Positions 6,949 through 16,288 of a DNA stretch of 64,000 nucleotides are shown one piece after another. Under the pieces are notes generated by a model. That model did not search any database. It saw only the letters and a list, made by a program, of their open reading frames with translations, and was not told the origin of the DNA. The DNA is taken from NCBI GenBank assembly GCA_965228895.1, contig OZ245842.1:3712001-3776000 (forward strand), in the 5' to 3' direction. Within the stretch, counting starts at the first letter, position 1. Each line of letters begins with the position of its first letter. Position numbers and translations under genes: made by a program. Source of the DNA: Alphaproteobacteria bacterium. GTDB taxonomy: Bacteria > Pseudomonadota > Alphaproteobacteria > SP197.

Positions 6949-7602
6949 TCAGGCGGCAGCCTCAATCATCTGAAAGACGGCATCTTCGATTCGCTTGTCG
7001 AGACCGTTGCTCATTGACGGGATCGCTCTGTCGGGTCCGAAATAGGGCGAAGATCCCACCATCATCGCGTAAATCATGATGCCGAGTTGGCGGCAGGCGC
7101 GTTTGTCGAGCTCTGGCCGGATCGTGCCAATCACGTTGGCATACCGGCCGGTCACCCAGCGGTGCCAGTTGTTGCTGAGACGCCGTAGCGCGCGGTCACG
7201 TTCGGCGAGCGACCAGCGCTCGCGGACCTGGGCGACGAACCTGGGGTCTCGGTTTGCCGCCAGTTCGAACGCGACAAGCCGGCGCAGCCGCTCTCGGGCG
7301 TTGGGCGCCGGTGCATCGTGGACCTCCAGCCAGATCCGTTTATGTGCCTCCACATGCTCGGCAAATGCAGCCAGCAAAAGGTCGGACCGGGTCGGGAAGT
7401 AGTACTGCAGGTTGCCCTTGCTGATGCCGACGCGCCGGGCGACCGCTTCCAAAGTCAGATCGTTGTAACCCGCCTCCACGACCACATCGAGCGCGGCCTG
7501 AAGGATTTGCGCGGCACGGCGGCTGCCCTTTCTGGTCGCCGCGGCATCGTCACGCATGCCCTCTCTTTTCGTCATCGGCAAGCTGTCACCGGCAGCATCC
7601 AT
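6949..7602 (-). CDS. TetR-family transcriptional regulator
   Basis: ILQAALDVVVEAGYNDLTLEAVARRVGISKGNLQYYFPT; start uncertain (7602, 7575 or 7557). Confidence 0.9.
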   Translation of the reverse strand: MDAAGDSLPMTKREGMRDDAAATRKGSRRAAQILQAALDVVVEAGYNDLTLEAVARRVGISKGNLQYYFPTRSDLLLAAFAEHVEAHKRIWLEVHDAPAPNARERLRRLVAFELAANRDPRFVAQVRERWSLAERDRALRRLSNNWHRWVTGRYANVIGTIRPELDKRACRQLGIMIYAMMVGSSPYFGPDRAIPSMSNGLDKRIEDAVFQMIEAAA

Positions 7603-7613
7603 TATTCTTTCCG

Positions 7614-7665
7614 TTGACAATAGGCCACTGGCCTATAATTTTAGGCCTACGGCCTATTCTGTCAA
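7614..7665. promoter_or_regulatory. Overlapping divergent sigma70 promoters with tandem TetR operators TAGGCC-N3-GGCCTA
   Basis: TTGACA at 7614-7619 (+) and TTGACA on the - strand (7660-7665) N16 TAAAAT; two palindromes at 7621-7635 and 7642-7656. Confidence 0.75.
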
Positions 7666-7685
7666 TGCATGCGGTGGAGTTTTGC

Positions 7686-8399
7686 GTGTTGCCGAGCGAC
7701 AATGTGGATACCGTCGTCTTTCTGCCGGGCCTGCTGGACGATGTTCAGATGTGGAACCACCAGCTTGAGCACCTGGGCGATGTTGCGCAGCCCGTGGCCG
7801 TTGACCTGCTGGAACAGGAAACCGTCGGCGACGGCGCTGCCCGCGTGCTCGATACCGTCCGCGGTACGTTCGCCTTGGTCGGCTTTTCCATGGGCGGTTA
7901 TGTCGCCTTGGAGATCATGCGCCGCGCGCCCGAGCGCGTGACCAAGCTAGCGATGATCGACACCTCGGCGCGAGGCGATACGGACGACCGCACGGTCGAA
8001 CGCAAGCGCCAGATAGCGCTCGCCGAAGCCGGCAAGTACCCCGCCCTCGTCGATCAGGCTCTGCCCAATGTCGTGCACCCCAGCCGTCATGACGACATGG
8101 TGTTGATGTCGACACTGCGCACCATGGCGTTGCGCGTCGGGGCAGAGGCCTTCGTCCGCCAGATGAAAACCATCATGAGCCGGCCCGACAGCCGCCCGGA
8201 CCTCGCCGCCATCCAACGCCCGACCCTGGTAATCTGTGGACGTCAGGACACGCTGACGCCGCCTGAGCTATCGGAGGAGATGGGTGCCGGCATCCCCGGC
8301 GCGCGCGTCGCGCTCATTGAAGACTGCAACCACTACGCACCGATGGAGCGCCCTTATGCGGTTACCGCCCTGCTGCAGCAATGGCTGCGTTATGGCTGA
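7686..8399 (+). CDS. Alpha/beta-fold hydrolase
   Basis: FLPGLL, GFSMGG, ICGRQD and CNHYAPME; GGAG RBS before GTG 7686. Confidence 0.9.
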   Translation: MLPSDNVDTVVFLPGLLDDVQMWNHQLEHLGDVAQPVAVDLLEQETVGDGAARVLDTVRGTFALVGFSMGGYVALEIMRRAPERVTKLAMIDTSARGDTDDRTVERKRQIALAEAGKYPALVDQALPNVVHPSRHDDMVLMSTLRTMALRVGAEAFVRQMKTIMSRPDSRPDLAAIQRPTLVICGRQDTLTPPELSEEMGAGIPGARVALIEDCNHYAPMERPYAVTALLQQWLRYG

Positions 8400-8402
8400 A
8401 CC

Positions 8403-9689
8403 ATGAAAGCAATCGATACGGACGTGGTGATCATCGGCGCCGGCATTGCCGGTCTGACGGCGGCATGGCGGCTTCTCGAGGCCGGACGCTCGGTTGCCGT
8501 CCTGGAAGCCAACAGCCGTGTCGGCGGTCGCATCTATGGCTTTTCGATTGGCGACAGAGTGGTGCAGCTCGGTGGCCGATGGATCGGTCCTGGCCAGGAC
8601 GCCATCAAGCGCTTGGCCGGCGAACTCGATGTCGCCGTGAAACCTCTCCAGATCTTTGACGCCGCCGCCGAGGCGCGTGGCGTGAACAAGCCCGATGTGA
8701 TCGAGGCTGTGCGGGAGATCGACAACGCCGCCGCCATGGTGCCCCTGGACCAACCGTGGACCGTGCCCGACGCTGATATCCTTGACGGCCAGACGCTCGC
8801 TACCTGGCTGTCGACAACCTTCGGTCCTCAGCATGCCGCAACGCTCGGCGACATCCTGACCGGGTTCCTGCCGGAACCTCAGGATGTCTCGCTGCTCCAC
8901 GCGCTCTTCTACCTCAAATCCAACGGCGGGTTCGCCAGCATCCTGGGGCTGGACGGGCCGGCCCATGACAGCGAGATCTTTGTCGGCGGCGCGCACGCCA
9001 TGACCGACACACTGGCGGAACGCCTGAGTGACGCGATTTATCTGGAGACCTCGGCGATGTCGGTGCGTCATGACGGCAGTGGCGTCGCGGTTATTGCCGA
9101 CGGACTCACGGTTGACGCAAGCCATGCCATCGTCACCCTGCCGCCGGTGCTTGCCGGCCGCTTGCGCTGGGATCCACCTTTGCCGCCCGCCCGCGACTAC
9201 CTGACACAGCGCATGCCGATACGCGGCAAGGTCACGGCAGTGGCGATCTACGACCAGCCATTCTGGCGCGACGCCGGCATGACCAGTTTCGCATCCGACG
9301 CCATGATTGCCTGGGACGAAGGCGGCGACGAGCTTCCCGCCGCCTTCACCATGCTGGTCTCGATCCGCCGCTCGCGGGAGATCTGGGCGATGCCGGAGTC
9401 CGAGCGCCAAGCGGCGCTGCTCGATGACCTCGCCGCCGGATTGGGGCCGGATGCGCGCAATGCCCACGCCGTGCACATGGTCAACTGGGCGGCGGAACCT
9501 TGGAGTCGGGGCTGCAACTCCTTCATGACCACCGGCGCTTGGACCAACTGGGGTCATGCGTTGCGTGAACCGGTCGGGCGCATCCGCTGGGCCTGCGCCG
9601 AAGTCAGCGAACAGTTCGCCGGCCAGATGGAGGGCGCGGTCCGTACCGCCGAGTCGGCGGCGAGCGCCGTCGACGAAGCGCTGGCCTGA
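8403..9689 (+). CDS. Flavin monoamine oxidase-family protein
   Basis: GAGIAGL, LEANSRVGGR, WAAEPWSRGC and GQMEGAV. Confidence 0.9.
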   Translation: MKAIDTDVVIIGAGIAGLTAAWRLLEAGRSVAVLEANSRVGGRIYGFSIGDRVVQLGGRWIGPGQDAIKRLAGELDVAVKPLQIFDAAAEARGVNKPDVIEAVREIDNAAAMVPLDQPWTVPDADILDGQTLATWLSTTFGPQHAATLGDILTGFLPEPQDVSLLHALFYLKSNGGFASILGLDGPAHDSEIFVGGAHAMTDTLAERLSDAIYLETSAMSVRHDGSGVAVIADGLTVDASHAIVTLPPVLAGRLRWDPPLPPARDYLTQRMPIRGKVTAVAIYDQPFWRDAGMTSFASDAMIAWDEGGDELPAAFTMLVSIRRSREIWAMPESERQAALLDDLAAGLGPDARNAHAVHMVNWAAEPWSRGCNSFMTTGAWTNWGHALREPVGRIRWACAEVSEQFAGQMEGAVRTAESAASAVDEALA

Positions 9690-9707: not shown

Positions 9708-10916
9708 ATGGACAACCAACTTGCCAGTTTGATCACGCAAGCCGAGTGCGACGCGGTGATGGCGCCGATCGGCGAGGCCCTGACACCGCCACCGCCTGCC
9801 TTTACCGACGACGACTGGTTTGCGCTGGAGGCCGAACGGATCTTCCGGCGCAACTGGACAGCCGTGATGTTCGATTGCGCCCTGCCCGACCCCGGCGACG
9901 CCCACCCGTTCGACGTCTTCGGCATGCCGCTCGTGGCCCTGCGTGGCGATGACGGCATCCTGCGTGTCTTCCACAACATCTGCCCGTATGACGGTTGTCC
10001 GGCCGTACGCGGCGATCGCAAAGGGCTAACGGATATCGAAGTCCTCTACCACGGTTGGCGTTACGATCTGCGCGGCCGGCTGAGCGACGCACCCTATTGG
10101 TCCGGCAGGCCGCAGACGGGTCCGGGCGACCTTAACGGCCATGACGGCAACCTGGTTGAGATACGCGCGGCGGTGCGCATTGGTACCGTCTTCATCGACC
10201 TCGACGGTAAGGCGCCGAATATCGACGACTGGCTCGGACCGTGGATGCGCGCGGTCGGCGGCGACTACGCGGTCGAACGTCTGGTTCCCGCCCGCGACAG
10301 CGACGGCAAGCCGCTGATCGAAACCCGCACGGTCAAGGCCAACTGGAAGACCTACCAGGAAAACGCCTCGATCAACCTATTGCACGAGGGTTTCACCCAC
10401 GACCTCTACCGCAAGTCACCGGAGGTGCCGCGCGTCGATGCCGACGGCAAACCGGCTTTCGAACTCTTTATGGAGGACGCGCTCGTCGCGTTCGGGCATA
10501 GCCGTCAGAAAAGCGGCAACACCTATGATCCCATCCGCCTGCCGACCGCCGGCCACGATATCCAGCGCCAGCCGGATTGGGGGTACTTCACAACGCTCTA
10601 CCCAAACGTCAACGTGCCGCTGCTCGACGCGTTCATGAAGGTGAACATAGCGATCCCCACCGGACCGGGCGAAACACACCTGCAGCACCTGCGCTTCTAT
10701 AGTCCCGAGGCGCTGGCCGACGACAACTTCCAGGCCGAGGAAGCCGCGGTCCAGGCGCTCTTCGATGTCGTGCACTACGAAGACAAACTCGCGATTGAAG
10801 CGGTTCAGGAGGCGCGCCGCTCACCGGTCTGGCGCCAGCATTTCTACGCGCCATTCTGGGATGACCTGCACCACTATTTCAACCAACGCGTCATGGCCGA
10901 CATGATGCGCGCGTAA
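9708..10916 (+). CDS. Rieske oxygenase alpha-subunit homologue (choline monooxygenase-like) with non-canonical Rieske motif
   Basis: E..RIFRRNW, FHNICPYDGC...VLYHGWRYDLRGRL, ANWKTYQEN...H.GFTH and EDKLAIEAVQ. Confidence 0.85.
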   Translation: MDNQLASLITQAECDAVMAPIGEALTPPPPAFTDDDWFALEAERIFRRNWTAVMFDCALPDPGDAHPFDVFGMPLVALRGDDGILRVFHNICPYDGCPAVRGDRKGLTDIEVLYHGWRYDLRGRLSDAPYWSGRPQTGPGDLNGHDGNLVEIRAAVRIGTVFIDLDGKAPNIDDWLGPWMRAVGGDYAVERLVPARDSDGKPLIETRTVKANWKTYQENASINLLHEGFTHDLYRKSPEVPRVDADGKPAFELFMEDALVAFGHSRQKSGNTYDPIRLPTAGHDIQRQPDWGYFTTLYPNVNVPLLDAFMKVNIAIPTGPGETHLQHLRFYSPEALADDNFQAEEAAVQALFDVVHYEDKLAIEAVQEARRSPVWRQHFYAPFWDDLHHYFNQRVMADMMRA

Positions 10917-10976: not shown

Positions 10977-11603
10977 ATGAACTCAGCGCTTTGGGCGAGC
11001 TTTGCGACCATCATGGGTGTTTGGCTGATCACCGTGATCAGCCCCGGCCCGAACTTTTTGGCCACCGTCTACACCACGGCGAGCCAGTCGCGCCGGCTTG
11101 GCCTGCTGGTTTCCCTGGGTATTGCCGTGGGCACCACGGTCTGGGCGACAGCCAGCTTGCTGGGACTGAGCCTGTTGTTCGAAACAGCCACGTGGCTTTA
11201 TCAGTCGGTCAAACTGGCAGGTGCCCTCTTCCTCATCTACCTCGGCCTTCGTACGATCGTCTTGGCGCGCCGTTTGCCGGCATCGGGACCCGCACCCGCT
11301 GTTCCCGTCTCCGCCGGACAGGCATTTCGTCGCGGTCTCATTGTCGACCTCAGCAATCCCAAGGCCGCCGTCTTCTTCGCCAGCCTGTTCGCGGTGACCG
11401 TCCCGCCCGATGCACCCCTGTGGTTCCAAACCGCCATCGTCGCCGCCGTCGTCGTGCTGGCCGGCGGCTGGTATGCCCTGGCGGCGTGTGTCGTTGACCT
11501 GAAACCGATCGCGCAGCTGTTGCGCCGGGCTCAGCGTGCCTTCTCGTATGCTTCCGGCGGCATCTTTGTCGCACTTGGCCTACGCCTCGCCACCGACCGG
11601 TGA
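10977..11603 (+). CDS. LysE/RhtB-family amino acid efflux translocator
   Basis: ISPGPNF and LSNPKAAVFF motifs; hydrophobic. Confidence 0.9.
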   Translation: MNSALWASFATIMGVWLITVISPGPNFLATVYTTASQSRRLGLLVSLGIAVGTTVWATASLLGLSLLFETATWLYQSVKLAGALFLIYLGLRTIVLARRLPASGPAPAVPVSAGQAFRRGLIVDLSNPKAAVFFASLFAVTVPPDAPLWFQTAIVAAVVVLAGGWYALAACVVDLKPIAQLLRRAQRAFSYASGGIFVALGLRLATDR

Positions 11604-11661: not shown

Positions 11662-13572
11662 CTACTGCAGTGGAATGCCCGCGCTGACCAGGGCCGCCGT
11701 CAACCGATCCCAGTCTTCCTGGTGACTGTAAGGCTGCGCGTCTTTGATGCCGTTTACGGTGAGTTCCGGCATGAGGGCGAGCGCCTCGCGTGCCGCTGCT
11801 TGCGCGTCCGCGGTACGGCCTGCCTGATCGTAGACAAAGGCCAGATTGACCAGCGTCCAGGCGCGGCGGTTGTCGTTTTCAGCCCGGCTCACCGCATCGA
11901 GCGCCCACTCGACGGCCTGATCTGTTTCGTCCTTGAATATGTAGTCGCGCGACAGATAAAGCGAATACCAGCTTGGATAGACGGGGTTGATGCGCATCGC
12001 CCGGTCGATCAGCTCGATCGATTTGTCGTATTGCCGGTTGAACGAGGCGACGAACCCCGCGAGTGCCAGGACGAACGAGTTGTTGGGATCAAGTTCGGTC
12101 GCGCTCGATGTGTTCGCCATGGCGGAATCGTAACGGCCCGCGATCTGATCGATATAGGCGTTCAGAATGTCGAGCTCGGCCTGTTCGGCGTCGGTCGTTT
12201 GTTCGTCAAGTGCCGCGGCCCTCTGCAAAAGATCCGCGGCATTCTGAAGCGATTCCTTCGCATCGTCGCTATAGCCCCATTGGGCGTCGCGGATGTAGGT
12301 GCGTGCCTCAAGCAGATAGGCCTCGCGATACTTGGGATCGAGCGCCAGAACCTGCTTGATCAAGCGCCGCGTCTCGATCGACGCCTGACGGTCGTACTTG
12401 CGGAACTCGGTCTCTGCCTTCATGAGCGCGAGGTAAGCATCGACATTGTCCGTGCTGGCGCCGCGGACGGCTGCCTGGTAGCCCTCGGTCAACTGGACCT
12501 GCAGCGAGACGAGCACCCTCAGCGCGATCTCGTCTTGAAGACTGAAGAGATCGTCGACATTCCGATCATATCGGCCGGTCCACAGGTTTTCGCCACGCTC
12601 GGTATCGGCCAGCTCAACCAGAATGCGCGCACTGTCGCCGGAAAGCTGCACGGTCCCGTCAACGACGTAGGCCACGTTCAGATCTTGCCCAACCTGACGA
12701 ACATCGACGGGCTGATCTTTGTAGCTGTTAATGGAGTTGCGCGAGATGACAAAGATCTCCGGCACATCCGCCAGCGCGCTGATGATCGATGCCGTCATGC
12801 CGTCGGCGATCATGTTGCCTTCATCGCTCATCGACAGGCTCTCGAACGGCAGAACGGCAATCGACGGCCGGTTCGGGAAACGTTCGGACGATGTCTCCGG
12901 TATCGCCGACACAGGATCTCGGGAGAGATAGAGCCAGGCAACACCGGTGCCGGCGAACACGACGACGAGCGCGGCAAGCGCGGCGGCAAACAACGTCGTG
13001 CGCTTGACCTGCCGCTTGGACCGCACTTTCGGCGGCGCGTCGACGAATGCTGCGGCCTTTTCGTCCAACACGACATCATAGACCGCATCAGGCTCAGGAT
13101 GAATCTTGACCCTACGCTCGACGATCTTGTCGAAGTTGAGATCGGCCGCGGGCGTGATGTCGTCATGCACCAGGCCGGAGACACACACACCGCCCAGAAA
13201 GGCGAGTTCGGACAGCCCGCCGGCCACACTTTCCGGCCCGCCGGCAGCCGACGGGTCTGCACTGGGGTCGGAGACGACCTCGATGCCCGTTCGATAGTGT
13301 ATCTGGCGGTCCTCACGCCGCTTCTTGTTGCGCTCCCGCATGGCGATCTGCATATCGATCGCGAAGGCGACCGCCTGCATGCAGCTCTCGAACGCGATCA
13401 CAAGACGATCATCGACCGCCTTCGTGATCGTGCCGCCATGACGGGCAAGCCTGATGTCGACGATTTCGGCGCGAATTCGCTTCAGCGATGCGGCAGCGCG
13501 CGTCGAATCCATGCGCATGAGACGCGAGTACCCGACGATCGCGGTCGACAAAATGGCAGAATGCTGGTTCAT
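11662..13572 (-). CDS. Degenerate class III cyclase domain + TM helix + TolB-like domain + TPR repeats
   Basis: SAILSTAIVGYSRLM (cyclase-like), TM LFAAALAALVVVFAGTGVAWLYL, PSIAVLPF, LALDP/ELDPN/RINP TPRs; GGAG RBS before ATG 13572. Confidence 0.85.
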   Translation of the reverse strand: MNQHSAILSTAIVGYSRLMRMDSTRAAASLKRIRAEIVDIRLARHGGTITKAVDDRLVIAFESCMQAVAFAIDMQIAMRERNKKRREDRQIHYRTGIEVVSDPSADPSAAGGPESVAGGLSELAFLGGVCVSGLVHDDITPAADLNFDKIVERRVKIHPEPDAVYDVVLDEKAAAFVDAPPKVRSKRQVKRTTLFAAALAALVVVFAGTGVAWLYLSRDPVSAIPETSSERFPNRPSIAVLPFESLSMSDEGNMIADGMTASIISALADVPEIFVISRNSINSYKDQPVDVRQVGQDLNVAYVVDGTVQLSGDSARILVELADTERGENLWTGRYDRNVDDLFSLQDEIALRVLVSLQVQLTEGYQAAVRGASTDNVDAYLALMKAETEFRKYDRQASIETRRLIKQVLALDPKYREAYLLEARTYIRDAQWGYSDDAKESLQNAADLLQRAAALDEQTTDAEQAELDILNAYIDQIAGRYDSAMANTSSATELDPNNSFVLALAGFVASFNRQYDKSIELIDRAMRINPVYPSWYSLYLSRDYIFKDETDQAVEWALDAVSRAENDNRRAWTLVNLAFVYDQAGRTADAQAAAREALALMPELTVNGIKDAQPYSHQEDWDRLTAALVSAGIPLQ

Positions 13573-13759
13573 AGACGCTCCGTAGGGCGCGAGATTATCG
13601 GAGCCATGCCGAAGAATCCACGTGGGCACGGCGGCTTTACCGGACCCGGCCCGATGGTACAAAGATCTGCGGCATCGCCTTCATCATCGCAGGCGCGACT
13701 TGTACCCGGCAACGACACCTGAAAAACTGGCCTCGGCTGCGAATTGACTGGGTTGGCGC

Positions 13760-16288
13760 GTGACCGACGTCTCGATAGATCAACAGGTACGACGATCCCC
13801 TCTGCCTTGGCCCGATGACTATCGGGACTTGGAGCCGGTCCTGCGTCAGGAGTGGGGCGTTGACGGCGAAATCTACCTGAACCGCCAACTCAGCGGCAAA
13901 TCAGGCGCCCTGGTGTTCGCCGCGGATCTGACCGGCAAGGACTTTGCCGGACAGGCTATTCTGAAGCTCGATCGCACCTCCCGGACGGACTGGTCCGAGG
14001 ACCAGGAGTTCGAGCGCCACAGACGCGCCTTCGAGGTGAACCCGGACTACGCTGCCGCACACTTGCCGCGCATCGTTCACGCCGCGCAGCATGGTGATTA
14101 CATCGCCATTCTCTCAACGATTGCCGGGCGTGGACTTGAGTACGCTCTGCCCTGGGCGGAATGTGCCTGGATGCCGCAACTGAACGTCGCCGGGCGCCTG
14201 GCCGACGATTTGCTGGAGTGCTGGAACGAGAATGCCTTTCTTGATCCGGCCATGCTCGAACCTCGCGATCTCTTGCAATCATGGCTGGGCTATCGGCTCG
14301 ACCCGAACGACGGTGGACGCATTCACGACTTTCTGGGTTCGACATGCGGCGTACCGGCACTGACGCCGGCGCTTTCGTTCGAAGGCGAGTGGCGCCCCAA
14401 TCCGCTGGCGTTCGCGGAACAGGTGGTCACCGCCGGATCGTCGATACGCCTGCGCGCAATCCGCGGCAACGTCCATGGCGACCTGCACGGTTTCAACGTG
14501 CTGGTGCGTCGCCAGGCAGAGGTCAAACCGGACTACTACCTCATCGACCTGGATCTTTATCGCGATGACGGCTTCCTCTTTTTTGACCACGCCTATTTTG
14601 AGCTGACCTACCTGATTACTGAACGCCAGTCGATCGAACCCAGCCGGTGGAAGTCGATCCTGAACACGCTCAGCCCGCGCGCCTACATTCAAGAAGAAGA
14701 TGTCGTCACCGGTGACGACGTCGGCATGCTGCAACTCGTCAACGACATGCGCGACGAGGTGAAAACCTGGATCGATCGGCACGAACCCAACCGCCTGTCC
14801 TACATGGAAAGCCAGTCCCTTATGGGCCGCATCGCGGCCGGGCTTGCCCTGACGCACCAGACACGGTCAAGCGCGGTACGCGCGATGGCGTTTCTGTACG
14901 CAGCAACCAGCTTACAGGACTTCCTGACACTGCACGATGTCGAGTGGCCTAAGAACGGGCCGGCCTTCACCTACGATCCGACCGGCGACGCCACGAATCA
15001 GGCGGCCACGCCGGTCGTATCCAACACCCCGACACAAATGGCGCCACTTGAGGCTTCCACCGACAATACAGCCGACAGCGCCCATCCGACCAAACCGTCA
15101 ATCGCCGTCTTGGCGTTCGCAAACCACAGTGACGATCCCGATCAGACGTACTTTGCCGAAGGCATCGCCGGCGAAATCATCGCCGACCTGTCGCGCATTG
15201 ACTGGCTGATGGTGATCGCCCGGTCAACCAGCTTCGTCTATCGCGGCCAGGATCCCGATCCCCGCACGGTTGGCCGGGAACTGGGCGTTCAGTATGTCGT
15301 GGAAGGCAGCGTCCGCAAGGAGGGTCAGAAGCTGGACATCACGGTCCACCTGATCGAGGCCGCTACGGCCACCGAGCTGTGGGCCAACCGCTACACCATG
15401 GACATGGGTGTCGAGGACGTCATCGCCGCCGAAGAGGACATCGCGGCAGCCATTGTCACCACGATTGGCATGGAGGTTAACGAGAGCGAGAGCAAGCGTG
15501 CGCTGCGCAAACCACCTGAAAACCTCGATGCTTGGGATCTTTACCTTCGCGCCAGTTGGTACTTCTACCAGTTGAACGAAGAAGGTTCGAAAGCGGCCTA
15601 CAAGTTGGCCTTGATGGCGACAAAAATGGCGCCCAACTACGCGCCGCCCTATGCGCAGATCGCCCTTATCGAATCGCGCAGAGTCTTTTGGATGTTGACC
15701 GACGATGCCGCGACGTCCCTGAAGCGCGCAAACGAGTTTGCCGCCAAAGCCGTCTCGTTGGACCCCGGCAGCAGCGCGGCACGCTACGCACTGTCTCGGG
15801 CTTACATGCTAAGCGGAAAGCGTGACCTGGCGATCTCCGAAGCGGAGGCCTCCATCGCGCTCAACCCCAACTCTCAAAGAGCGCATTACTTCTTGGCGCT
15901 CGCTCTAATGTGGGATGCCCAGATTACGGAAGCCATTCCGCATATCGATATCTCCATCGATCTGAGCCCGAAAGGTCCTCTGTTGCCGATCAAGCTGGCC
16001 ACGAAGGCGGGCGCATTGGGTTTTCTGGGCAGGTTCAGCGAAGCGGAAACAGTGGCGCGTGAAGCACTGAGCTACAGAGAGAATCTTCCAGGACTGCACA
16101 TCGTTTTGGCCATTATCCTGGGTCTACAAGACCGGACTGACGAGGCCGCAGCCGCCGTAAAGCTCGTAACCGACATACGGCCGGAACTCACCATCGAGAG
16201 ACTGGCGACACTTGGACACGCCATGGACTCCGATCTGTGGGCACTCGTCCGCGAAACGCTGCGCAAGGCTGGTTTTCCCGAGAGCTAG
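13760..16288 (+). CDS. Kinase/phosphotransferase-like domain + TolB-like domain + TPR repeats
   Basis: GKSGALVF, AILKLD, HGDLHGFNVLV and YYLIDL; then PSIAVLAFAN...YFAEGI and TPRs. Confidence 0.8.
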   Translation: MTDVSIDQQVRRSPLPWPDDYRDLEPVLRQEWGVDGEIYLNRQLSGKSGALVFAADLTGKDFAGQAILKLDRTSRTDWSEDQEFERHRRAFEVNPDYAAAHLPRIVHAAQHGDYIAILSTIAGRGLEYALPWAECAWMPQLNVAGRLADDLLECWNENAFLDPAMLEPRDLLQSWLGYRLDPNDGGRIHDFLGSTCGVPALTPALSFEGEWRPNPLAFAEQVVTAGSSIRLRAIRGNVHGDLHGFNVLVRRQAEVKPDYYLIDLDLYRDDGFLFFDHAYFELTYLITERQSIEPSRWKSILNTLSPRAYIQEEDVVTGDDVGMLQLVNDMRDEVKTWIDRHEPNRLSYMESQSLMGRIAAGLALTHQTRSSAVRAMAFLYAATSLQDFLTLHDVEWPKNGPAFTYDPTGDATNQAATPVVSNTPTQMAPLEASTDNTADSAHPTKPSIAVLAFANHSDDPDQTYFAEGIAGEIIADLSRIDWLMVIARSTSFVYRGQDPDPRTVGRELGVQYVVEGSVRKEGQKLDITVHLIEAATATELWANRYTMDMGVEDVIAAEEDIAAAIVTTIGMEVNESESKRALRKPPENLDAWDLYLRASWYFYQLNEEGSKAAYKLALMATKMAPNYAPPYAQIALIESRRVFWMLTDDAATSLKRANEFAAKAVSLDPGSSAARYALSRAYMLSGKRDLAISEAEASIALNPNSQRAHYFLALALMWDAQITEAIPHIDISIDLSPKGPLLPIKLATKAGALGFLGRFSEAETVAREALSYRENLPGLHIVLAIILGLQDRTDEAAAAVKLVTDIRPELTIERLATLGHAMDSDLWALVRETLRKAGFPES

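Follow-up and report, generated by a model that had tools for sequence, protein, structure and literature searches.

A conserved clade of Rieske oxygenase homologues that lacks cluster ligands and the bridging carboxylate but keeps the predicted mononuclear iron site

We have identified a clade of Rieske oxygenase (RO) homologues that, as judged from sequence comparisons, is monophyletic and under selection, is devoid of the cluster ligands and bridging carboxylate typical of the family, and retains the predicted iron triad. Its reference member, here called the target, is a 402-residue protein encoded in the window, by which we mean the whole 64,000-nucleotide stretch analyzed (Alphaproteobacteria bacterium, assembly GCA_965228895.1, contig OZ245842.1, positions 3,712,001 to 3,776,000). 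ROs are defined by two metal centers and an obligatory electron supply, and the finding is surprising to a specialist because two defining features of the family are gone. We hypothesize, with a probability of roughly 0.6, that the clade derives from ROs of the CntA/GbcA/Stc2 type and has neither a Rieske cluster nor a bridge relay, while its fold is intact and its 2-His-1-Asp iron site functional. The target probably carries out oxidative chemistry and dispenses with the customary reductase. Redox partners, through their cost and specificity, are the main obstacle to RO biocatalysis, and this clade of at least 188 distinct sequences, mainly from uncultured Alpha- and Gammaproteobacteria, would show the scaffold working without them. 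It would also mark uncharacterized catabolic operons for nitrogen-containing compounds, with amine oxidases, amidases, arginase-family enzymes and other hydrolases.

The target gene and its motifs are located in the window as follows:

9708..10916, + strand: putatively cluster-less RO alpha-subunit homologue (Pfam Rieske plus Ring_hydroxyl_A)
9981..10058, + strand: remodeled cluster-binding loops CPYDGC-x14-VLYHGW, residues 92-117 (from the sequence, the CntA alignment and homologues)
10359..10400, + strand: E218-N219...N223-x-x-H226-E227-x3-H231, aligned to CntA E205/H208/H213
10779..10784, + strand: E358-D359, with Asp359 as the predicted third Fe ligand, aligned to the Asp323 motif of CntA

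The open reading frame (ORF) starts with ATG, preceded by a Shine-Dalgarno-like AGAGGA stretch, and has no internal stop. Pfam detects the Rieske domain PF00355 at residues 49-130 (E 8.3e-11, above the cut-off) and Ring_hydroxyl_A PF00848 at residues 208-397 (E 2.9e-17). Passages of the CntA study (PMC7948474) give Cys86, His88, Cys106 and His109 as the cluster ligands, Glu205 as the inter-subunit bridge, and His208, His213 and Asp323 as the ligands of the catalytic iron. In a HMMER alignment with CntA (6y9c), CPYDGC...VLYH faces CPHRGH...CPYH, INLLH faces MECYH, and YEDKLAIE faces PEDLNLVE. Relative to CntA, Tyr94 replaces the first cluster His (His1), Val112 the second cluster Cys (Cys2) and Asn223 the bridging Glu; Cys92, His115, His226, His231 and Asp359 are retained. 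Residues 218-231 read ENASINLLHEGFTH and residues 358-364 read EDKLAIE. The bridge-position Asn223 is encoded at 10374-10376, and the predicted Fe ligands His226 and His231 at 10383-10385 and 10398-10400, respectively. Measured against the usual definition of an RO alpha subunit, the target has the N-terminal Rieske-fold domain (PF00355; its AlphaFold2 model matches RO structures over the full length) and a catalytic domain with predicted 2-His-1-carboxylate ligands (PF00848; CntA alignment). It reads CPY...VLYH where the definition has C-x-H...C-x-x-H, and Asn223 where the definition has a bridging Asp or Glu three residues before the first Fe-ligand His. An earlier reading of this DNA, made from the sequence alone, had reported the motif CPYDGC-(x14)-VLYHGW with Tyr for His1 and Val for Cys2, retained iron ligands, a missing bridging Asp/Glu and a full-length ORF. 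Every coordinate and motif of that description was correct, and the CntA alignment bears out its account of the ligands and the bridge.

A decaying gene copy, or a sequencing or assembly error, could produce such motifs. Over all 4051 nt of the operon stretch, a contig from a different study (run X2) shows 23 substitutions and is free of indels. Within the target ORF there are 16 substitutions and four amino acid changes (N171D, Q267R, G319A and V354T), none of them in the motifs. A contig from run X1 is identical to the window and may be its source; the X2 contig is the independent one. The ratio of nonsynonymous to synonymous substitution rates (dN/dS) of the target gene against its closest genomic relative (locus L026, 90% amino acid identity) is 0.096 at a dS of 0.55. 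Eight further pairwise comparisons gave 0.08-0.23, but at saturated dS values above 1. Split by domain, dN/dS against L026 is 0.069 for the Rieske-like and 0.092 for the catalytic domain, and the mean column conservation across the clade is 0.64 versus 0.60. Constraint on the Rieske-like domain is no weaker than on the catalytic domain, and conservation within the protein peaks in the former cluster loops (mean 0.71). With an intact frame, a dN/dS of 0.096, an independent contig without indels and motifs that the best 120 homologues all share, error and pseudogenization are regarded as practically ruled out. The check for purifying selection on the variant motifs that had been proposed from the sequence alone was run and supports them (dN/dS ~0.1, clade-wide conservation).

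Homologues were collected with a word-indexed protein search, which yielded 311 at E <= 1e-10. The best 120 of these (47-90% identity) were examined, one of them a fragment without the first loop. All have Tyr or Phe at His1 and no Cys at Cys2, so that canonical close homologues, which would have spoken for decay or error, are absent from this group. An exhaustive search of 50%-identity representatives returned 7771 matches at E <= 0.001, 75 of them at E <= 1e-30. The best 150 of the 7771 were considered, and the 102 with at least 340 residues were aligned: 31 are variant and 71 canonical. Variant representatives head the match list down to about E 1e-50, and the switch to canonical proteins falls at about 1e-50 to 1e-54, with the canonical protein P0152 (8e-54) interleaved among variant ones.

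A maximum-likelihood tree was constructed from 32 variant rows, one of them the query, and the first 35 canonical rows with lengths of 370-440 residues. In this tree, whose root was not established, the variant rows form one side of a branch with a Shimodaira-Hasegawa-like approximate likelihood ratio test (SH-aLRT) value of 99. The same split was recovered after removal of the columns of both loops and of the bridge region. This fits a single change to the variant state and a monophyletic clade. Loss of the ligands is the economical direction of change because all more distant relatives are canonical. The joint loss of the electron-relay parts with the catalytic iron ligands kept, which had been noticed in the one protein, is thus a conserved and selected trait of the whole clade.

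The 5.53-Mb genome that contains the window encodes 44 RO alpha-subunit homologues, 43 of which have the canonical C-x-H...C-x-x-H pattern; the target gene is the exception. The variant gene is single-copy. At E <= 1e-60 it was recovered from 11 of 18 further genomes in its family and from none of 12 that belong to different families of the class. When one genome per species was scanned, 56 loci emerged, nearly all of them in metagenome-assembled Alpha- and Gammaproteobacteria. The only isolate among them is Pseudomaricurvus alkylphenolicus KCTC 32386, whose protein is 36% identical to the target and whose gene has other neighbors.

For residue counts, 204 sequences of 340-480 residues without the canonical pattern were pooled from the two protein searches and the scan of one genome per species, and 188 remained after duplicate removal. 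The columns of this set (n = 188) are occupied as follows:

Cys1 column (C92): C 125, V 51, S 9, G 3
His1 column (Y94): Y 177, F 8, H 3
Cys2 column (V112): T 79, V 68, A 12, S 11, I 10, G 8, and Cys 0, a count that is partly circular given how the set was picked
His2 column (H115): H 187
"New" Cys97 column: C 173, S 10, A 3, W 1, V 1
Asp95 column: D 188
Bridge column (N223): N 186, E 2
Predicted Fe ligands: H226 188, H231 188, D359 184 of the 185 sequences that cover D359

Compared with the 71 canonical relatives, the clade-specific residues are D95, N223, E227, Y234, P241, R242 and Y273. The D95 position is Arg in 70 of the 71, and the bridge position is Glu in 49 and Asp in 22. R242 sits within an insertion, and the polar residues E227, Y234, R242 and Y273 have been gained beside the iron ligands.

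These counts bear on the second of two readings offered from the sequence alone, namely that the cluster is held by a new set of ligands. A new [2Fe-2S] ligation is disfavored because four ligands are unavailable clade-wide: the Cys1 column is Val, Ser or Gly in 63 of the 188 sequences, the Cys2 column is never Cys, and Cys97 is replaced in 15. The Val-type members are 63-70% identical to the target and have the same operon type, as at locus L004. In a broader form of this idea, the loops would hold a different metal center with a relay, redox or structural role, for example a mononuclear Fe or Zn bound by Asp95, Cys97 and His115 together with Cys92 or Tyr94. Such a center would account for the near-invariance of D95 (188/188), H115 (187), C97 (173) and Y94 (177), for the replacement of a canonical Arg by D95, and for the loop tips being the best conserved part of the protein (mean 0.71), and to that extent the loops speak against a protein that has given up metal binding there. 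Replacements of Cys92 in 63, of C97 in 15 and of Y94 by Phe in eight sequences argue against four cluster ligands, and the bridge that a relay would need is Asn in 186 of 188, comparable to the E205Q variant of CntA, which is inactive according to passages of PMC7948474. We consider a different loop metal quite unlikely. The other reading offered, a reductase-independent mononuclear-iron enzyme, remains the best one.

The structure of the target was predicted with AlphaFold2 from a 47-sequence clade alignment (mean predicted local distance difference test score 94.4, predicted TM score 0.92), and the model has a high-confidence RO two-domain fold. Foldseek against the PDB returned CntA first (6zgp, E 5e-27, TM 0.72/0.80), followed by the stachydrine demethylase 3vca, 3n0q and aromatic dioxygenases. 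The only full-length sequence matches in the PDB are CntA variants (6y9c, E 1.6e-18; 6y8j, 3.6e-18), which cover residues 24-375. The best NCBIfam scores lie far below the cut-offs (AndAc, 69 bits versus 750; GbcA, NF058607, 63.4 versus 670), so that the GbcA equivalog profile does not place the target among the quaternary-amine (Group V) ROs. At about 20% identity, the target shares with CntA, Stc2 (3vca) and GbcA the two-domain architecture, the lack of a beta subunit gene and the H-x4-H...D iron ligands. Unlike CntA, it lacks the CxH/CxxH cluster ligands, of which only the second His is retained; it has Asn with a one-residue insertion beside it at the equivalent of Glu205, and it reads NLLHE in place of ECYHC, without the Cys pair. 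Passages of PMC7948474 describe a cation-pi contact between CntA Tyr203 and the quaternary ammonium group of the substrate. In the pairwise HMMER alignment Ala220 faces this Tyr, in a pairing that an adjacent gap makes uncertain. The sequences directly across the tree branch from the variant clade (P0152, P0155, P0165 and P0170) are uncharacterized canonical sisters, 28-35% identical to the target over the full length, and several of them share the H-E-x-(F/Y)-V-H iron motif with the clade. Unlike the clade, they retain CxHRG...CPYH and an E/D bridge and lack D95, Y234, R242 and Y273.

In naphthalene dioxygenase and CntA, the second cluster His faces the bridging carboxylate of the neighboring subunit. 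The pattern in the clade suggests that this interface is preserved and the relay lost, because His115, the residue that pairs with the bridge, is kept while the bridge is Asn. By homology, we infer an inter-subunit contact His115-Asn223-His226, in which the Rieske-like domain would now serve only as a head-to-tail oligomer interface. A Rieske fold that persists without its cluster has a precedent in NirD, the small subunit of assimilatory nitrite reductase, which is small, stands alone and has no catalytic domain with mononuclear iron. With Asn in place of the bridge, the relay should be blocked, because the E205A, E205D and E205Q mutants of CntA are inactive, as passages of PMC7948474 state.

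The sequence-only reading had also drawn on the lack of a reductase or ferredoxin gene nearby. There is indeed none near the target gene, and the nearest Fer2 or NAD_binding_1 match lies 335 kb away. The whole genome has 12 Fer2 and three NAD_binding_1 matches for its 44 oxygenase genes, and only two of the 43 canonical paralogues have such a match within 10 kb. A missing nearby reductase is uninformative because the other 41 lack one too, and the observation, although true, was dropped as evidence. Probably, a few shared reductases serve many oxygenases in this genome.

The genes around the target in the window are:

6949..7620, - strand: TetR-family regulator, divergent from the operon (Pfam TetR_N, E 1.8e-11)
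7619..7658, no strand assigned: 40-nt palindrome between the TetR and hydrolase genes, candidate TetR operator over divergent promoters
7665..8399, + strand: alpha/beta-fold hydrolase (esterase/lactonase-like), first gene of the operon (Pfam Abhydrolase_1, E 8.1e-16)
8403..9689, + strand: flavin-containing amine oxidase of the monoamine oxidase (MAO)/putrescine-oxidase type (Pfam Amino_oxidase, E 7.6e-48)
10977..11603, + strand: LysE-family exporter, adjoining but not a conserved member of the locus (Pfam LysE, E 1.2e-31)

Intergenic gaps are 3 nt between hydrolase and amine oxidase, 18 nt between amine oxidase and target, and 60 nt between target and LysE. The palindrome consists of two abutting 20-nt arms that are 80% complementary and flanked by TTGACA/TGTCAA, and no other part of the TetR/hydrolase region is as well conserved between the window and L026. 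A strong promoter-like site on the minus strand (7665-7638; 11 of 12 positions match) overlaps it. The palindrome is likely the TetR operator over divergent promoters. The hydrolase ORF opens at TTG 7614, and its probable start is ATG 7665, behind the palindrome. Its best PDB match is the esterase 4uhc (E 2.6e-24), and NCBIfam matches to PcaD-like enol-lactonases are below the cut-offs. The amine oxidase matches the monoamine oxidase 8p84 (4.4e-72), putrescine oxidase (1e-54) and cyclohexylamine oxidase (2e-51); these PDB relatives oxidize primary amines and release H2O2.

Genes within 3.5 kb of the variant gene were counted in 55 loci, comprising 54 of the 56 scanned loci and the window. Locus L032, where the gene is split into two ORFs and the MAO gene lies on the other strand, and locus L055 were left out. 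The counts are:

amine oxidase: 17 of 55 loci
alpha/beta hydrolase orthologue: 11 of 55 loci
TetR: 10 of 55 loci
metallo-beta-lactamase fold: 9 of 55 loci
major facilitator superfamily (MFS) transporter: 9 of 55 loci
amidase: 8 of 55 loci
luciferase-like monooxygenase: 7 of 55 loci
arginase-family hydrolase: 6 of 55 loci
tetratricopeptide-repeat (TPR)-sulfotransferase: 6 of 55 loci

The 17 MAO-linked loci cover 39-90% identity to the target and are spread over the alphaproteobacterial part of the tree (44-90% identity), together with one gammaproteobacterial locus. The linkage appears to be old and repeatedly lost, because the tree needs at least 6-8 changes of the MAO label. A Pfam scan of 41 neighbors in MAO-free loci detected alpha/beta hydrolases (L020, L056), an amidohydrolase (L051), a creatinase/M24 protein (L035), glutathione S-transferases (L044, L053) and regulators. 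Hydrolase genes thus recur beside the variant gene, being of the alpha/beta, metallo-beta-lactamase, amidase, arginase-family, amidohydrolase and creatinase-like types. None of the 77 neighbor ORFs scanned with Pfam (36 + 41) belongs to a ferredoxin or ferredoxin-reductase family. These contexts, with hydrolases and with amine, amide and guanidino chemistry, point to the catabolism of small nitrogen compounds.

If the iron site works without a reductase, electrons could come from the substrate, as in an oxidase or dioxygenase, or enter as H2O2 in a peroxide shunt. HppE is a mononuclear non-heme iron enzyme that uses H2O2 without a reductase. Catalysis driven by peroxide is chemically plausible for such a scaffold, because CntA oxidizes carnitine with H2O2 alone, as reported in passages of PMC7948474. 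The peroxide shunt in known ROs is a laboratory side reaction of cluster-bearing enzymes, from which a native mode here would differ. The window would then hold a TetR-controlled operon of hydrolase, flavin amine oxidase and cluster-less enzyme. In it, the oxidase encoded upstream would deliver one H2O2 for each amine oxidized, the cluster-less enzyme would take the aldehyde or imine product and possibly consume the released H2O2, and the hydrolase would act before or after it. The most explicit version has the scaffold as a self-sufficient peroxygenase or oxidase, for which the co-translated MAO makes both substrate and H2O2, the loops with Tyr94, Asp95 and His115 join the active site of the neighboring subunit, and no NAD(P)H is spent; this version is rather unlikely. 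A route from a putrescine-type amine through a cyclic imine and a lactam to hydrolysis was considered and is not claimed.

Further observations weigh against a general, reductase-free oxidative mode. The MAO gene is missing from 38 of the 55 loci, six of which have less than 1.5 kb of upstream sequence. The family as a whole therefore cannot depend on H2O2 coupling, and the link to the adjacent flavoprotein that had been suggested is real in part, with an orthologous MAO gene within 3.5 kb in 17 loci. A split-barrel gene of the flavin mononucleotide (FMN)-binding type lies downstream in L044, and canonical RO genes lie within the same cluster in two gammaproteobacterial loci, L046 and L054, so that external electron supply or mixed oligomers may occur. 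The set of 188 sequences was picked by absence of the canonical pattern. A serious selection bias is unlikely because the result for the best 120 homologues and the tree built without the motifs give independent support.

The target could instead be a non-catalytic or accessory subunit that mixes with canonical RO alpha subunits, or could have a binding or regulatory function. The 43 canonical paralogues in the genome and the two loci with a canonical RO in the variant's cluster are compatible with such a role. Unlike in pseudo-enzymes, however, the iron ligands and pocket residues are invariant; in addition, the gene is single-copy, most operons have no canonical RO, and the bridge that would receive electrons from a partner's cluster is gone. 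This role is very unlikely.

The loss of the whole electron path could also mean that no electrons are needed. The 2-His-1-Asp site would then be a Lewis-acid or other non-redox center, and the clade would consist of hydrolases, lyases, isomerases or decarboxylases that use neither O2 nor electrons. New residues of the acid/base type beside the ligands (E227, Y234, R242 and Y273) and neighbors that are mostly hydrolases of C-N and C-O bonds agree with this. No RO catalytic domain with a non-redox function is known to us, however, and the tight and ancient association with an oxidase that uses O2 and produces H2O2, seen in 17 loci, is more in keeping with oxidative chemistry. We regard non-redox catalysis as unlikely and prefer the mononuclear-iron oxidative enzyme.

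No published description of a cluster-less RO homologue was found in open-access full texts, and the passages of a 2025 RO review that were available make no mention of one. Among curated families, none in Pfam or NCBIfam covers the clade, and the ESM Atlas returned only generic Rieske/Ring_hydroxyl_A clusters. The possibility that the variant is an already characterized subfamily finds no support in open-access full texts or NCBIfam. Current database names of the variant proteins are "Rieske 2Fe-2S domain-containing protein", "choline monooxygenase" and "SRPBCC family protein"; they are generic or misleading and should serve as a warning for annotators.

The LysE gene had been counted as part of the locus from the sequence alone. 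It adjoins the variant gene only in the window. Across the 56 loci tblastn found it at one other, L026, about 6 kb downstream, and it was rejected as a member of the system.

Several loci show additional features. Canonical ROs with CRHRG...CPYHAW are encoded in the gammaproteobacterial variant clusters at L046:2958-4097 and L054:4272-5378, and the gene order at L046 is sulfotransferase, MFS transporter, canonical RO, luciferase-like monooxygenase and variant RO. Tandem extra copies or fragments lie directly upstream of the full-length variant gene at L002:6940-9572, L009:5970-6769 and L019:6364-6823, and the extra copy at L002 is truncated with the variant motifs retained. At L006:7114-8008 the upstream hydrolase and amine oxidase genes are present only as short pieces and the variant gene is intact; this copy of the operon may be degraded.

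In the window, a 182-residue ORF at 6378-6926 matches the 181-position profile of the formyltransferase N-domain in its C-terminal half only (positions 95-175, E 3.1e-5, below the cut-off). It has no tblastn match in the otherwise syntenic L026, where a phosphoenolpyruvate (PEP)-mutase-like gene abuts TetR, and may represent either the remnant of a gene or inserted DNA. Two further ORFs of the window, 11662-13662 (- strand, 666 residues) and 13760-16288 (+ strand, 842 residues), share a PSIAVLPF/PSIAVLAF segment that is followed by repeat-rich C-terminal halves.

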